From an uncultured Planctomycetia bacterium (GTDB taxonomy: Bacteria; Omnitrophota; Gorgyraeia; Duberdicusellales; 4484-171): 64,000 nucleotides of DNA. The translations under genes and the position numbers were made by a program. The DNA lies in contig CAZVQU010000001.1 in the NCBI GenBank assembly GCA_964629655.1, positions 356,056-420,055 on the forward strand, given 5' to 3'. Below the pieces are notes generated by a model that worked only from the letters and a program-made list of their open reading frames with translations, made no database searches and was not told the origin of the DNA. Positions 3,535 to 53,667 of the stretch are shown one piece after another; position 1 is the first letter of the stretch, and the number at the start of each line of letters is the position of its first letter.

Positions 3535-3552
3535 AATTAACCCTATAATCTA

Positions 3553-4935
3553 TTATGAAATTACTAATTTTTTTTCACCTAAATTGCGATTAACAATTCG
3601 CGGAGTTAAAGTTAAATATTCTTTTTCAATTAAATATTTAACAATCCCTAAAATCCGATAATCGCTGTATTTAACCCCTGTTACTTGTAAACCAAACGGC
3701 ATACTGTCCGGCCCTCTAAATACTGGCACATTCAGTGCGGGAGCTCCTAACAATGACCAGATTAAACCAGTATCGTCTACTTCTTTGTAGTTATTTCTCA
3801 AGGGAGCGATATTCGCCGTCGCCGGCGTAAGGATTAAATCATAGCTATCATAGTTATAATCAAACTCTTTTTGCATCCTTTCCTGCTCCTTAAGGGAATT
3901 ATGAAACTCTTGCACTGTAATTTTTCTACCATGCTCAACCATGCTATAGAGAGTTGAGCTAATTACATTTTTATCCGCACTTTCTCGTTTAAAATAATAA
4001 GCTAAACTCTTATCGTATAAAGTCGAATGTATTCTATGGCTGCCATCAAAGAAACCATCATCTTTTATATCTAGCACCTTGATCTCTTCTTTAGTCCTTA
4101 AAAAATCAACTAAACCTTCAAATTGATTTTTGACATAATCCTGATATCCCTGCCAAAGATATTCAGGTCTTAAAATCCCAATTTTTATGCTATTGTAGCC
4201 TACAATGGAACGTTTCTTTAGCATCGTATTGCTTATAGGGTAATTTTCACCGCGTACTCTTAAGATATCAAAAAGTAAAATTATATCGTCAATATTATTG
4301 GCAAAAAACCCAACATGATCTAACGTATTGGTAGTTTTTAAAACTCCCGTTCGGGGCATAGTTCCGTAAGAAGGTTTGCATCCAAAAATACCGGTATAAC
4401 TAGCCGGCCTTACGATGGAAGATCCTGTCTGTGTACCTAACGAGGCTATGGACAACCCCGCCGCGACCGCAACTGCTGAACCCATTGAGGATGTTCCCGG
4501 AGAGTAATCGTTATTGTGCGGGTTTAGGGTTATGCCCGGATGATGTACGGCTAACTCTGCGGTAACTGTCTTACCCGTAACTACTCCATCCTCCCAAATG
4601 GCTTTCTCCACAACTCTTGCATTATTCCCTGCTACATATCCTTTCCAGTAAGGACTTCCTTTCTCAGTCGTAAGTTCAACAGTATTAAAAACATCTTTAA
4701 CGCCAATGGGGACGCCATACAACTCTCCATGCGTTTTCCCTTCTTTAATTCTCTTAATAATCTGCTGCACCCTGTCAAAAACAACACTCTCATCAAACAC
4801 CTGAAAAGCCATTAACTCACTATCCATGGCTTTAATAAAAGATGTTAACTTTTTATAAAACTCCTCAAGATCAATCTCTCTTGTTTTAATTAGTTTTATA
4901 AACTGTTTAATGTTAATTTGGGTTAAATTAATCAC
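3553..4935 (-). CDS. Amidase-signature (GatA-like) amidase
   Basis: AS-family signature GVPIGVKDVF...GTSSMGSAVAVAAGL...GTQTGSSIVRPAS, with the Ser-cisSer-Lys triad context. 460 aa. Confidence 0.7.
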   Translation of the reverse strand: MINLTQINIKQFIKLIKTREIDLEEFYKKLTSFIKAMDSELMAFQVFDESVVFDRVQQIIKRIKEGKTHGELYGVPIGVKDVFNTVELTTEKGSPYWKGYVAGNNARVVEKAIWEDGVVTGKTVTAELAVHHPGITLNPHNNDYSPGTSSMGSAVAVAAGLSIASLGTQTGSSIVRPASYTGIFGCKPSYGTMPRTGVLKTTNTLDHVGFFANNIDDIILLFDILRVRGENYPISNTMLKKRSIVGYNSIKIGILRPEYLWQGYQDYVKNQFEGLVDFLRTKEEIKVLDIKDDGFFDGSHRIHSTLYDKSLAYYFKRESADKNVISSTLYSMVEHGRKITVQEFHNSLKEQERMQKEFDYNYDSYDLILTPATANIAPLRNNYKEVDDTGLIWSLLGAPALNVPVFRGPDSMPFGLQVTGVKYSDYRILGIVKYLIEKEYLTLTPRIVNRNLGEKKLVIS

Positions 4936-49958: not shown

Positions 49959-50858
49959 TTATAGATTTTCTTTGACTAAAAGGGATGCTCCAATTATACC
50001 AGCATTTGAGAGCTTTGCCCTTACTAATTTTACGCCTAAATTTTGGGGCCACATTACTTGCTTTTTTATTTCTTTGGCAACTAATGGTTTAAATAATTTG
50101 AATGCTCCTGATACTCCTCCGCCAAATATAATAACTTGGGGATTAAATACATTTATCATTCCTGCCAAAAATTTTCCTAGATTATGGGAAAACTCATTCC
50201 AAACGATCAACGCCTCGGCCTCTTTGGCTAAACCTCTTTGGAAGAGTTGTTTTACTTCTTTTACTCTTGTTTTATTCTTCTTCAAACGCGTATAATGCGA
50301 AAGCAGATAGCGGTTGCCAACATAAGTTTCGATACAGCCCCGGCCTCCGCAACCGCAAAGCTTGCCCTTTAGATTTATCGGCACATGTCCTAACTCGGTA
50401 GCACTGGTCTTACCTTCAAGAAGCTTACCACCGCAGATCACTGCGCCTCCTAAGCCTGTACCTAGAGTTAAGAATATAGCTCTTCTTTTACCCTTGGCTG
50501 CACCAAAACGGGCTTCAGCCAAAGCAAAAGCATTCGCATCATTGTCGATGGACACCGGAAGTTTTAAGTTCTTTTTAAGTACACTCTGTAAGGGATACTT
50601 TTCCCATCCGGGAATATTCGGCAGATAGTAGATAAAACCTTTTTCTACGTCAACTATTCCTGGTACTCCGATGCCTACGCCTCTTATAGTAAAGGAAGAA
50701 AAACCTTTGAGAAGTGTCTTGAGATTCTTTATGAAGACTTGCTTTTGCCTAAGTTGGCTTGAACAGTAAACTTTCTTCTTTACTATCCTTCCCCGGCTAT
50801 CAACTAAACCTGCTTTTAAGTAAGTTCCTCCCCAATCAATACCTAAGAATACCTGCAT
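49959..50858 (-). CDS. ROK-family sugar kinase (glucokinase-like)
   Basis: LGIDWGGTYLKAG...DNDANAFALAE...C-x-CGxxGC zinc motif (CGCGGRGCIE). 299 aa. Confidence 0.7.
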   Translation of the reverse strand: MQVFLGIDWGGTYLKAGLVDSRGRIVKKKVYCSSQLRQKQVFIKNLKTLLKGFSSFTIRGVGIGVPGIVDVEKGFIYYLPNIPGWEKYPLQSVLKKNLKLPVSIDNDANAFALAEARFGAAKGKRRAIFLTLGTGLGGAVICGGKLLEGKTSATELGHVPINLKGKLCGCGGRGCIETYVGNRYLLSHYTRLKKNKTRVKEVKQLFQRGLAKEAEALIVWNEFSHNLGKFLAGMINVFNPQVIIFGGGVSGAFKLFKPLVAKEIKKQVMWPQNLGVKLVRAKLSNAGIIGASLLVKENL

Positions 50859-50900
50859 AATCCTATTGTAGCGAATAATCCTTATTTTTCAACTCAAAAA

Positions 50901-50978
50901 TGGTCGGGAGGGCGGGACTTGAACCCGCGGCCTCTTCGTCCCGAACGAAGCGCGCTAGCCAAACTGCGCTACCCCCCG
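50901..50978 (-). tRNA. tRNA-Pro (anticodon CGG), CCA encoded
   Basis: Hand-folded cloverleaf: acceptor CGGGGGG/CCTCCCG with one G-U, D-arm, anticodon stem CTTCG/CGAAG with loop TTCGGGA, T-arm GCGGG-TTCAAGT-CCCGC, 3' ACCA. Confidence 0.8.
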
Positions 50979-51547
50979 TTCTTCTGCTTAAGAAGATAAT
51001 CAAACTCTATATTTAAGAAGTCGCCTATTCTTTTATACCTTATAGTAGTATTCTCGTAAGTGAAAGGAACGATATCAACAGTAAATGTCCGGGGGAGAAG
51101 TTTTTTTATGGTAAGAGAGATTCCCTCTATTGCGATTGATCCATTAGCCAACACATTTTTTCTAAACATAGAAGGTAAATCTATCTCTAATTGCCAATGG
51201 CCGGATTTTTTAATCAGTCTTCTTAATTTCAACTCGGTATCAATATGGCCTAAGACAAAATGTCCTCCTACTTTTTCTCCTAAACTTAAAGCCGGTTCTA
51301 GATTTACATAGTCGCCTTTTTTGAGTCGTTTAAGATTAGTATTCTTTAGGGTAGAACTTATTGCATCAAAGAAAAAAGAATTCTTGTCCTTTGAGGATAA
51401 AGTAAGGCAGACTCCGTTTACCGAAATGCTATCTGAGAGATTAGCTGCGCCTAAAACAACACTAGACTCTACTCCTAAGTTTATAGAAGAGCTTCCCTTA
51501 GTAATCTTTTTAACCTTACCGATTTCTCTTACTATTCCTGTAAACAT
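50969..51547 (-). CDS. ribE: Riboflavin synthase alpha chain
   Basis: MFTGIV N-terminus and two lumazine-binding repeats. 192 aa. The 3' end overlaps the tRNA-Pro 5' end by 10 nt. Confidence 0.8.
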   Translation of the reverse strand: MFTGIVREIGKVKKITKGSSSINLGVESSVVLGAANLSDSISVNGVCLTLSSKDKNSFFFDAISSTLKNTNLKRLKKGDYVNLEPALSLGEKVGGHFVLGHIDTELKLRRLIKKSGHWQLEIDLPSMFRKNVLANGSIAIEGISLTIKKLLPRTFTVDIVPFTYENTTIRYKRIGDFLNIEFDYLLKQKNGG

Positions 51548-51696
51548 AAGGGGATTATATCATAGAGAGGATAAAAATCTATAAAGAAATAGCTCTTACG
51601 AATACGATAAATATTGAATATTGTAGCAGCATAAAACCCTCTGCTCCAAGCCCTTGTATCTTTTAGCTAAAGTAACTAGCTCCTTAAATGAAGACA

Positions 51697-51727
51697 CCCC
51701 GCGCTTTTCGGCGCGGGGTTTATATTC
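51697..51727 (+). terminator. GC-rich hairpin plus T-tract, oriented for the plus strand
   Basis: CCCCGCGC-ttttcg-GCGCGGGG perfect 8-bp stem followed by TTTATATT. On the minus strand the hairpin is followed by no U-tract. Confidence 0.45.
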
Positions 51728-51759
51728 TCAAGGTGTTTTCTTTTACCTTCGTAAAACTC

Positions 51760-51825
51760 TTATTTCTTTTTCTTCTTTGCTACTTTCTTCTTTGCTGCTT
51801 TTTTCTTTGCTTTCTTCTTTGCCAT
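51760..51825 (-). CDS. Lys-rich 21-codon micro-ORF (MAKKKAKKKAAKKKVAKKKKK)
   Basis: ATG preceded by AGGAGG at 7-nt spacing and a near-consensus promoter 55 nt upstream. TAA stop. Too short for the ORF track. Confidence 0.35.
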   Translation of the reverse strand: MAKKKAKKKAAKKKVAKKKKK

Positions 51826-51875
51826 CTGTACACCTCCTATTATTTTTGCTCCCAACCCAATGCTGGGATACCCTC

Positions 51876-51910
51876 TATATCTAATTTACCAAAATTATCA
51901 GACTTGTCAA
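51876..51910 (-). promoter_or_regulatory. Sigma70-type promoter: TTGACA, 16-nt spacer, TGgTAAATT
   Basis: Perfect -35 hexamer (minus 51910-51905) and extended -10 (TG plus TAAATT, minus 51888-51883). Drives the micro-ORF and possibly ribE. Confidence 0.5.
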
Positions 51911-52022
51911 TACTTTTTCACATTTTTTTTGAAATTTTTTCAATGAGACTTATGTTTTTAAAAATAAATTAAAAACATTTAGTCGAATTGGTCTCGAGCG
52001 TAGGCGAGGGATCTAAAGTGGC

Positions 52023-52304
52023 TTATTTGGCTTTAAGGCTAGAAGGTACTCTTACTTTCTTGGCTTTGCTCCATAGATGTTCGAGGTTATAAAATTCTCG
52101 TGCCTCTTCAATGAATATGTGAAGAATGACATCGAAAAGGTCAACAAGCATCCAGCGTGAAGATTCATCGTATTGATGAGAACGAACTCCTATCTTTTCT
52201 TTCCTGCACAGCTTTACCGTCTCTTGGGCAATTGCATCTACTTGCCTTGATGACTCGGCGGAACAAATGACAAAATAATCACACAAACCGCTCTGGCTCC
52301 CCAC
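52023..52304 (-). CDS. rsfS: Ribosomal silencing factor RsfS (Iojap family)
   Basis: DYFVICSAESSRQVDAIA...LVDLFDVILHIFIEEAREFYNLEHLW Iojap motifs. The in-frame open sequence extends to about 52415 with no ATG, so the true N-terminus may use a non-ATG start upstream of the listed GTG. Confidence 0.7.
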   Translation of the reverse strand: MGSQSGLCDYFVICSAESSRQVDAIAQETVKLCRKEKIGVRSHQYDESSRWMLVDLFDVILHIFIEEAREFYNLEHLWSKAKKVRVPSSLKAK

Positions 52305-52389
52305 ATCTAAGACAACTACATCTCTGGCTTTTCTGGCTAAGATAAACTCTACTACCTTTAAGGCTTTTACCTTACTGGCTATAGGCTTT

Positions 52390-53667
52390 TTAGGAATGAG
52401 AAACCCCCTTCTTTGCTATTTTTCTTATTAGCTCCTCAGACCCATCCTTAATGTTACCGACATAAGAAATACGCATATTCTTAAATTTGAATATATCTTT
52501 AGCTAGGCTCTTGATATCTCTTGGGTTGATAGTCTCGACTTTTTCTTTAATCTGATTAAAGCTATAGATCTTATCCAGAGTTAAAAAACTCTCAGCAAGA
52601 TAAAACATTCGGCCCTGAGGACGCTCTAAACTCATCGCCACTTGCCCAAGAAAATAATCTTTCGCTCGGGATAACTCGCGGCTGGAAACTTCTTTTCTCT
52701 TTATCTTATCTAGCTCTCTAAGAAGGGTACCTAGAGCTACGGTTAACTTACTCTTATCCAACCCCAGGTGTATTGAGAAGGCGCCGCTATCTCTATACTT
52801 TCTAATCTCAGTAGAAATATCATAGCATAAAGATCTTTTCTCCCTTAGCTCTTCAAATAAACGGCTACTCATATTGGCGCCTAAAATCACATTTAGCAGT
52901 TGCGCAGTTACCCTCTTCTGGCTTTGATAGGAGATACTTTGAAAACCTAAACAAAGATGTGACTGCTCAAGACTCTTTTTTTCACACTTAACTTCCAGGC
53001 CCTGGCAAAGAGAAGGGCTAGAGCACCTAAGGTTAACTTTCTGTTTAGCTTTTCTTATCTTCTTAGTCAATAAATCGACTATTCTGTCTTTATCGTATGC
53101 TCCGCTAAAAGAAATAACTATATTAGAAGGTGTATAGTATTGTTTCCGAAAATTGTCTAGGTCCCTGCGGCCTATTCCTTTAACTGTAGCTACCTGCCCT
53201 ATAATCTCCTCACCCAAAGGGTGATTCTTCCAAAGTAAGTGGTCTAAGAGCGTGCCGGCCCGCGAAGAAGGAAGATCATTATACATCTTTATCTCTTCTA
53301 AAATTACATTCCTTTCTTTGTTAACCTCTGCCTCCTTTAGCAAGGGATTAAATACCATATCAAGAAGGATATCTAAAGCTCGGGGAAGATTTTTATTTAG
53401 AAAGTGTGCATAATAAGCAGTTATCTCCTGGGCAGTGAAAGCATTTAGAGAACCTCCTCTACCCTCAATCTCTCTTTTTATCTGCCGATGCGAATAGCTT
53501 CGACTCCCTTTAAAAAGCATATGCTCCAAGAAATGAGCAATACCTTTTACCTTTCTGTCCTCAAAACGAGCTCCGCCCCGCAAAAATACTCCTAAAGATG
53601 CAGTCTCTATATTTTGAAATGGTGAGAATATGAAATCTGCACCATTAATATTTATTACTTCATGCAT
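52390..53667 (-). CDS. M16-family zinc peptidase (insulinase/pitrilysin-like)
   Basis: Inverted zincin HFLEHMLFKGS plus downstream Glu. 425 aa. Confidence 0.75.
   Translation of the reverse strand: MHEVININGADFIFSPFQNIETASLGVFLRGGARFEDRKVKGIAHFLEHMLFKGSRSYSHRQIKREIEGRGGSLNAFTAQEITAYYAHFLNKNLPRALDILLDMVFNPLLKEAEVNKERNVILEEIKMYNDLPSSRAGTLLDHLLWKNHPLGEEIIGQVATVKGIGRRDLDNFRKQYYTPSNIVISFSGAYDKDRIVDLLTKKIRKAKQKVNLRCSSPSLCQGLEVKCEKKSLEQSHLCLGFQSISYQSQKRVTAQLLNVILGANMSSRLFEELREKRSLCYDISTEIRKYRDSGAFSIHLGLDKSKLTVALGTLLRELDKIKRKEVSSRELSRAKDYFLGQVAMSLERPQGRMFYLAESFLTLDKIYSFNQIKEKVETINPRDIKSLAKDIFKFKNMRISYVGNIKDGSEELIRKIAKKGVSHS

Follow-up and report, generated by a model that had tools for sequence, protein, structure and literature searches.

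The stretch of DNA analysed here, 64,000 nucleotides long and referred to below as the window, spans positions 356,056 to 420,055 of contig CAZVQU010000001.1 (assembly GCA_964629655.1) from an uncultured bacterium of the Omnitrophota. On its minus strand, the genes ribE (50969-51547), which codes for riboflavin synthase (Pfam Lum_binding), and rsfS (52023-52304), which codes for a ribosome silencing factor, are separated by a spacer of 475 bp (51548-52022), while the other minus-strand gaps nearby measure 1-85 bp or the genes overlap. A preliminary description of the sequence had singled out this long gap amid short spacers, and the ribE start at 51547 and the rsfS stop at 52023 bear it out. 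Judged by its sequence and by that of its relatives, the unit held in the spacer is a real, conserved and unannotated gene for a poly-lysine micro-protein, equipped with its own promoter and terminator.

Layout of the unit between rsfS and ribE

The elements of the unit and its boundary are listed in Table 1. The micro-ORF (open reading frame) promoter matches the consensus at 10 of 12 positions, carries the TG of an extended -10 element and is the top-ranked site of the region in a promoter scan. TTGAC[A/T], TG and TAAATT are present in every relative whose sequence covers the promoter, and the spacer length of the window lies within the 16-18 nt expected of a sigma-70 promoter. Both the scan and this conservation agree with the preliminary description, which had read a minus-strand promoter from TTGACA, a 16-nt spacer and TGgTAAATT. 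Upstream of the -35 element, phased A-tracts and a GTGAAAAAG/GCGAAAAAG motif, that is G(T/C)GAAAAAG, are kept in 15 relatives. Transcription is predicted to start near 51876. At the predicted 5' end of the transcript, ahead of the stem-loop, lies a conserved purine-rich motif, (A)UAGAGGGU or UAGAAGGU (51869-51882 on the minus strand and orthologous positions), which resembles a Shine-Dalgarno (SD) sequence and may either stabilise the 5' end or belong to the initial transcribed sequence.

Table 1. Elements of the rsfS-ribE spacer, in the order of minus-strand transcription (positions are those of the window; UTR, untranslated region).
Feature	Position	Strand	Sequence or layout	Basis and remarks
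UP-element-like region, rich in A-tracts	51911-51945	minus	ends in …AAAAAATTTCAAAAAAAATGTGAAAAAGTA	sequence; role as an UP element predicted
Sigma-70-type promoter	51883-51910	minus	-35 TTGACA (51910-51905); 16-nt spacer ending in TGG; -10 TAAATT (51888-51883)	
5'-UTR stem-loop	51850-51868	minus	UCCCAGC-AUUGG-GUUGGGA, 7 bp	RNAalifold consensus; about 8 nt from the predicted 5' end; putative stabiliser
Shine-Dalgarno sequence	51831-51838	minus	AGGAGGTG	5 nt from the ATG; AGGAGG 7 nt from the ATG at 51825; A-rich unpaired tract before it
Micro-ORF	51760-51825	minus	21 codons and TAA; encodes MAKKKAKKKAAKKKVAKKKKK, net charge +14	ORF list and relatives
Post-stop hairpin	51730-51749	minus	AAGGU-(10-nt loop)-ACCUU (ACGAAGGU…ACCUUUGU), then conserved GAGAAUAUAA (51729-51720)	
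Intrinsic terminator	51685-51719	minus	ACCCCGCGC-CGAAAA-GCGCGGGGT (51719-51696), then GTCTTCATTTA	scan, covariation, T-tail
ribE extended -10 promoter	51545-51562	minus	TGATATAAT (51562-51554)	ends 6 nt before the ribE ATG at 51547; boundary of the unit, outside it

The preliminary description had also recognised the SD sequence, the ATG and the 21-codon ORF over a tandem repeat, and the sequence confirms all three, with the repeat placed at 51758-51822 by Tandem Repeats Finder. This is the sole SD-preceded ORF with a lysine plus arginine (K+R) fraction of at least 0.6 in the window, and no comparable SD-preceded, K+R-rich ORF was found in 280 kb of unrelated loci.

The leader hairpin formerly drawn as CCCA/TGGG exists, although its extent has to be revised to the 7-bp stem UCCCAGC/GUUGGGA. 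Across a nine-sequence alignment of this 19-nt element, 98.4% of the cells are paired and 4 of the 7 pairs have changed on both sides, as in the compensated stems UCCUGAC/GUUAGGA (L096), ACCGAU/AUCGGU (L100) and UCUUAAC/GUUGAGA (L103; L numbers designate related loci throughout); slid controls gave 22-64%. The hairpin is weak in L099 and L102, and it occurs in a shifted register in L006, which was excluded from the count. The post-stop stem has 5 bp in the window and 8-9 bp in distant members; with hand-cut arms and an artificial loop, pairing extends to 89% of its cells, and 4 of 9 pairs show compensatory changes (AAGAU/AUCUU in L102, for example).

The GC-rich hairpin noted in the preliminary description is likewise present. 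On the minus strand it has nine pairs, eight of them GC and three with compensatory changes, and an energy of -15 to -19 kcal/mol. The assignment of its T-tract to the plus strand only was mistaken: in either orientation the hairpin scores as terminator-like, with the tail GTCTTCATTT on the minus strand and TTATATTCTC on the plus strand of the window. Among the relatives, the ORF-strand tail holds 6-9 T in 10 throughout and is cleanest in the distant ones, where it reaches T7-T9, as in TTTTTTAATA (L007), CTGTTTTTTTT (L098) and TTTTTGTTTTT (L100). U-tracts on both sides of the hairpin in the relatives would suggest a simple bidirectional terminator; instead, distant members are down to 3-5 T in 10 on the opposite strand, against 7-9 on the ORF strand. 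Because the ORF-strand tail is kept while the opposite-strand tract weakens with distance, this GC-rich hairpin with a T-rich tail on the transcribed strand appears to be the micro-ORF's own intrinsic terminator.

Three further observations concern the flanking genes. On the 3' side of the rsfS stop, at about 51950-52000 on the minus strand, an AT-rich hairpin (ATGTTTTTAA…TTAAAAACAT) is flanked by the motifs AATTCGACTAA and TAAGTCTCATT, which recur in L099 and L103; this hairpin probably terminates rsfS transcription or forms a binding site immediately ahead of the micro-ORF promoter. The window RsfS has 93 amino acids (aa) and a GTG start, compared to 109-133 aa in relatives, where the end of the M16 peptidase gene and rsfS overlap; in the window lineage, either the RsfS N-terminus may be shortened or the start codon may be unusual. 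At the other end, a tRNA-Pro(CGG) gene (50901-50978, minus strand) overlaps the last ribE codons by 10 nt, a layout shared by L003, L005, L006, L063 and L076, which suggests co-transcription of ribE and the tRNA.

Distribution and coding signature of the micro-ORF

Relatives were gathered through a genome scan with RibE, a metagenome scan with the leader pattern and contig look-ups for RibE homologues (74-61% identity). The RibE scan returned relatives at 92, 87, 77, 63 and 60% identity, together with a partial match labelled Candidatus Susulua stagnicola; Candidatus Susulua is a genus within Candidatus Omnitrophota, of the PVC (Planctomycetes-Verrucomicrobia-Chlamydiae) group, and some related metagenome-assembled genomes (MAGs) are otherwise labelled in the records. 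The exact window RibE protein occurs on two Logan contigs. Searching metagenomes for the pattern TGGGTTGGGA…GGAGGT…ATGGC yielded 49 stretches, 8 of which are family members, the remainder being unrelated genes. The unit was thereby found at 24 Omnitrophota loci in 17 distinct versions, spanning RibE identities of 100-61%. Downstream of it lies ribE in 24 of 24 cases and upstream, on the same strand, rsfS wherever upstream sequence is available, within the conserved gene order trpB-trpA-M16 peptidase-rsfS-[unit]-ribE-ROK kinase-transaldolase (tal)-lptD. The poly-lysine ORF was not found near the rsfS-ribE slot of three sister Omnitrophota lineages (RibE 58-60% identity), and the slot is empty in an Omnitrophota MAG at 45% RibE identity; as found so far, the gene is confined to one Omnitrophota clade.

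Loci of other make-up also came to light in this survey. An 85-aa HypA-like gene fills the slot in L101 (3740-3997), L104 (2241-2498) and L105 (2241-2498), all from one JGI sample. The Logan SRR31802794 contig (L002) does not differ from the window between the micro-ORF stop and the end of ribE, yet its promoter, 5'UTR and ORF resemble those of L096; either the ORF contains a recombination breakpoint or the assembly is chimeric.

All 16 complete distinct versions (17 counting the truncated L097 copy) keep the ATG, the SD sequence and the TAA, with the ATG 3-9 nt past GGAGGT (GGGGGG in L103) and the TAA immediately after the lysine run. This holds over nine peptide lengths, all in frame (18, 20, 21, 22, 23, 30, 34, 35 and 38 aa), exemplified by MAKKRKAAKKAKKKVAKKKKK in L003, MAKRRKAKKRKTAKKKKK in L006, MAAKRKKATKKKATKKKATKKKATKKKATKKKKK in L007, MAKKAAKKKVVKKKVAKKVAKKPVAKKKVAKKKKK in L091, MAKKKKKPAKKKKAAKKKKK in L099 and MAVKKKAAAKKKAAPKKKVVAKKRAAPKKKVAAKKKKK in L102. 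Homologues conserving the nucleotide repeat without the frame or the start codon would speak against a peptide; the relatives retain both. The family draws on M, A, K, R, V, T, I and P only, with K+R at 53-72%, and its sole constant positions are the N-terminal MA and the C-terminal lysine run. The peptides are made of tetramer or pentamer units in which one or two small residues (A, V, T, P) precede three or four lysines, and the close relatives L076 (30 aa) and L077 (35 aa) are one whole repeat unit apart.

Codon statistics, which cover 11 of the distinct ORFs, are those of a coding sequence. Lysine is encoded by 97 AAA and 83 AAG codons, 180 in total, with no AAT or AAC among them, and T or C in the third position is confined to four-fold-degenerate codons (GCN, GTN, ACN and one Pro codon, reported as CCA). 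Five Arg codons represent the sole other charged change, acidic residues are absent, and so are Glu, Gln, Asn, Ser and Gly. One alternative frame contains 17 stops and the other a single one. The window and L063 share the same ORF sequence with differing UTRs, and L009 differs from L077 by a single synonymous GTA/GTT change. Because lysine codons never become AAT or AAC, third positions change synonymously and the other frames contain stops, the codon pattern argues that selection is on a lysine-rich peptide, unlike that of a mere purine-rich repeat. The "tiny basic protein" of the preliminary description thus gains support as a real, conserved coding gene, with start, SD and stop kept over nine lengths and this codon signature. 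The longest A-run has 6 nt in the window ORF and at most 8 across the family. Koutmou et al. reportedly placed the onset of ribosome sliding, in 2015, at roughly 11 or more consecutive A, and the alternation of AAG and AAA may reflect avoidance of such sliding.

Database searches returned little that bears on the peptide. Pfam and NCBIfam scans gave no relevant match (NCBIfam at E up to 10), a match to the tail of a valine-tRNA ligase (E = 7.5) being set aside as noise, and the 21-aa and 38-aa versions matched no PDB sequence at E up to 10, ribosomal chains included. With the 31-aa TTG-extended form of the window ORF, phmmer found 0 matches among 1.84 billion representatives, for which composition filters are probably responsible; such low-complexity and composition filters make the nulls of family searches weak in both directions. 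None of ten peptide versions, or 11 by another count, is present by exact look-up in a collection of about 15 billion proteins, and even the forms of L098 and L102 are absent from it, although a gene caller recognised both on their contigs of origin. In the complete genome CP070684.1 (L100), a 66-aa hypothetical protein, UCG34806.1, is annotated at L100 3552-3752 in the wrong frame (KEEKSKEKS…); it overlaps the true 22-codon poly-lysine ORF (L100 3574-3642) and reads through the terminator. A literature search on poly-lysine motifs and on small or lysine-rich proteins of Omnitrophota found nothing relevant. Gene callers miss this poly-lysine micro-gene, and standard tryptic proteomics would miss its product, since trypsin cuts it into very small pieces.

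Competing readings of the unit

On balance, we lean towards a free-standing, monocistronic gene, probably with high expression, that encodes a polycationic micro-protein, by analogy with lysine-rich repeat proteins most likely a non-specific binder of polyanions (DNA or RNA). The near-consensus sigma-70 promoter and its A-tract upstream sequence would give rise to a minus-strand mRNA of some 190 nt, running from about 51876 to about 51690, in which the 7-bp stem-loop near the 5' end and the unpaired A-rich tract leading to a full SD would favour mRNA stability and efficient initiation. Translation would yield a peptide of 18-38 residues (21 here) with an MA start and a lysine-run end; a short hairpin would follow the stop, the GC-rich intrinsic terminator would end the transcript ahead of ribE, and ribE would be transcribed from its own extended -10 promoter. 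The peptide would then bind polyanions electrostatically, compacting or neutralising nucleic acids as the lysine-rich repeats of Hc2 and BpH1 do. We favour a non-specific binder over a protein fitted to an rRNA pocket because the length varies by whole repeat units.

Several points weigh against this proposal. Transcription start, expression level, the peptide and its amount, the stabilising role of the hairpins and the binding target are predictions from the sequence. Homology to any DNA-binding or ribosomal family was not detectable in the searches, with filters weakening these nulls. The counts of covariation for both hairpins come from hand-cut segments guided by folds, which leans towards structure. 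The 3'UTR is better conserved than the neighbouring coding DNA, so that the RNA itself may carry a function beyond this model. Finally, adjacency to rsfS would fit a ribosome-related role equally well.

A role on the ribosome is the main rival, and an unlikely one in our estimation. The product would be a stoichiometric, ribosome-bound micro-protein lodged in an rRNA pocket or at an inter-subunit site, analogous to bS22, bL37, Thx or eL41. Very small, very basic and preceded by strong expression signals, the peptide is encoded directly downstream of the gene for a ribosome silencing factor, and tiny basic ribosomal proteins do exist: in mycobacteria, bS22 lies near the decoding centre at the position of eL41, and bL37 near the peptidyl transferase centre (PMC6133939). 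The linkage to rsfS is not specific evidence, however, because it belongs to a long conserved gene order. Lengths of 18-38 aa that change by whole units even between near-identical loci are atypical for a fixed rRNA site, and non-lysine conservation is limited to the starting MA. Neither a match to a family model or solved chain, as expected of a bS22, bL37 or Thx relative, nor a near-constant length with family residues was found, filtering weakening the first of these. The assignment to a "bS22/THX type", raised as a possibility in the preliminary description, is, given the lack of NCBIfam, Pfam and PDB matches and the variable length, unsupported.

That the functional product is the RNA itself, either a small RNA (sRNA) or a dual-function mRNA, strikes us as quite improbable. 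In that case, protein binding or base pairing with targets would fall to the conserved 5' stem-loop, the purine-rich (ARN)n tract and the motifs of the 3'UTR, and the peptide would be secondary. Much of the conservation is compatible with such a role: the 3'UTR and terminator of L003, L004, L005 and L096 are 94-98% identical to those of the window, compared to 75-88% for the ribE DNA there, and both the 5' and the post-stop hairpin covary. The ribE values of L091 and L100, taken from a wrongly anchored extract, were left out of this comparison. The 192-nt window transcript also folds with unusual stability (-44.5 kcal/mol, z = -4.7 against shuffles), its minimum free energy fold joining the SD (GAGGUGU) to ACACCUU in the 3'UTR. 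This long-range pairing was set aside, since its conservation is not clear and the local post-stop hairpin covaries better, the change in L102 favouring the local hairpin. A role residing in RNA alone would also leave the coding signature unaccounted for, with no Asn, Glu or Gln codon among 180 Lys positions, synonymous third-position changes and a perfect SD and ATG kept everywhere, and Rfam families gave no match; the RNA may still act alongside the peptide.

Returning to the micro-protein gene as we understand it, its position ahead of ribE raises the question of a leader peptide, in which stalling or sliding on lysine codons would set read-through past the hairpin into ribE. The preliminary description had proposed such a regulatory leader, and the arrangement does mimic classical attenuators, with a promoter, a short ORF rich in a single residue, a hairpin and a same-strand gene; ribE follows the unit at all 24 loci, and some read-through is conceivable at the interrupted U-tract of the window (GTCTTCATTT). 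We nevertheless rate this reading as very improbable. When the 3' arm of the terminator is withheld, the 5' arm pairs at 0-5 of 8 positions in eight family members, and no antiterminator was thus found. The distance from the stop codon to the terminator varies from 28 to 75 nt, the filler from the terminator to ribE is unconserved and about 15 to 340 nt long, the terminator is strong with the clean tails already noted in distant members, and the family's A-runs stay below the sliding threshold cited above. Moreover, ribE has a conserved promoter of its own: the extended -10, without an SD, is found in the window, L003-L006 and L096-L099, and L007, L100, L102 and L103 have SD-less ribE leaders of 35-45 nt. 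With only 6 nt between the conserved extended -10 and the ATG, and with no SD, ribE looks leaderless and independently transcribed. To our knowledge, riboflavin synthase has no link to lysine supply. The two marks of an attenuator, a competing antiterminator and a promoterless downstream gene tied to the sensed amino acid, are both lacking at this locus.

An FMN riboswitch, which had been raised as a candidate, was not found, nor was any other Rfam leader family: scanning 50500-52600 of the window at E up to 1 gave a tRNA and sub-threshold noise, and seven related loci gave only tRNA at the gathering score. Matches to STnc180 and BSnc120 were discarded as sub-threshold chance. In some lineages, the filler holds a common GGGGATAG…GAACCGTCCCC hairpin just before the ribE promoter (L003 at about 3540-3590, as well as L009, L076 and L091), which has no Rfam match.

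It is hardly credible that an antisense sRNA, transcribed from the plus strand and terminated at the hairpin, targets the ORF region, as the preliminary description had also suggested on the strength of the terminator-like plus-strand tail: the only plus-strand promoter-like sites (51819, 51929 and 52250) all lie downstream of the hairpin in plus orientation, a plus-strand RNA ending there never reaches the ORF beyond it, and in relatives the T content of the opposite strand declines as that of the ORF-strand tail rises.

A candidate polycation and its known counterparts

What is new about the proposed gene, in this extreme form, is a free-standing peptide of about 20 residues, some 65% of them lysine, with a dedicated cassette predicted to give high expression. 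If abundant, it would represent a new minimal class of bacterial nucleic-acid-binding or ribosome-associated proteins, in a phylum without a cultured model. A conserved natural poly-lysine ORF would also let one ask how bacterial ribosomes get through lysine runs while neither stalling nor sliding, and its compact cassette of promoter, 5' stem-loop, SD and terminator might serve as a strong expression module in Omnitrophota-like systems.

We can tentatively go further and imagine a "bacterial protamine", an oligolysine made in bulk as the main counter-ion or compactor of DNA or RNA in ultra-small Omnitrophota cells, a possibility that we regard as doubtful. If it were true, an oligolysine would be expressed from one of the strongest cassettes of the genome, its 18-38 residues would place it among the shortest and most lysine-dense natural proteins, and a sequence of about 65% lysine would be translated efficiently in nature, the choice between AAG and AAA being tuned against sliding.

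Among known systems, the attenuators hisL, trpL, thrL and pheL share with this unit a short ORF dominated by one residue, a terminator hairpin and a same-strand gene after it. Unlike them, the unit described here has no antiterminator and a variable spacer, and the gene downstream has its own promoter and is unrelated to lysine.

The ribosomal micro-proteins come closer in size. Like the micro-protein, bS22, bL37 (Actinobacteria), Thx (Thermus) and eL41 are extremely basic, free-standing proteins of 20-35 aa that were long overlooked (PMC6133939). They have defined lengths, family motifs and curated models, whereas the micro-protein is a low-complexity repeat of variable length.

The closest likeness is to the histone-H1-like proteins Hc2/HctB of chlamydiae and BpH1 of Bordetella and to the Hc2-like proteins of Burkholderia and Ralstonia, which consist of consecutive short lysine-rich units with mainly Ala, along with Val, Thr and Pro. 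The pentamers of Hc2 combine Lys and Arg with Ala, Val, Thr and Pro; the length of the protein depends on how many repeats it has, and it binds both DNA and RNA (PMC2848022). Like proteins of this type, the micro-protein has lysine-rich short repeats with the same small residues and changes in length by gain or loss of repeats with the frame kept, and the PVC group includes Chlamydiae as well as Omnitrophota. Hc2 differs in its 165-237 aa, its conserved non-repeat flanks and its two basic residues per pentamer; the micro-protein, which has no Pfam HC1/HC2 match, no non-repeat flanking domain and a size below 100 aa, consists of repeats throughout, its units carrying three or four Lys and its charge density being roughly twice as high, and its binding to nucleic acids is a prediction.

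Two other systems bear comparison. ScvA of Coxiella burnetii is rich in arginine and glutamine, and unlike the micro-protein it is specific to a developmental stage; the two have no sequence relationship. It is a very small basic peptide with its own gene, thought to join chromatin condensation (PMC13568565). In mycobacteria, HU/Hlp and Ku carry PAKKA-type low-complexity repeats of Lys, Ala and Pro that modulate DNA binding (PMC3553676). These tails are appended to folded DNA-binding domains, whereas in the micro-protein the repeat is the whole protein.

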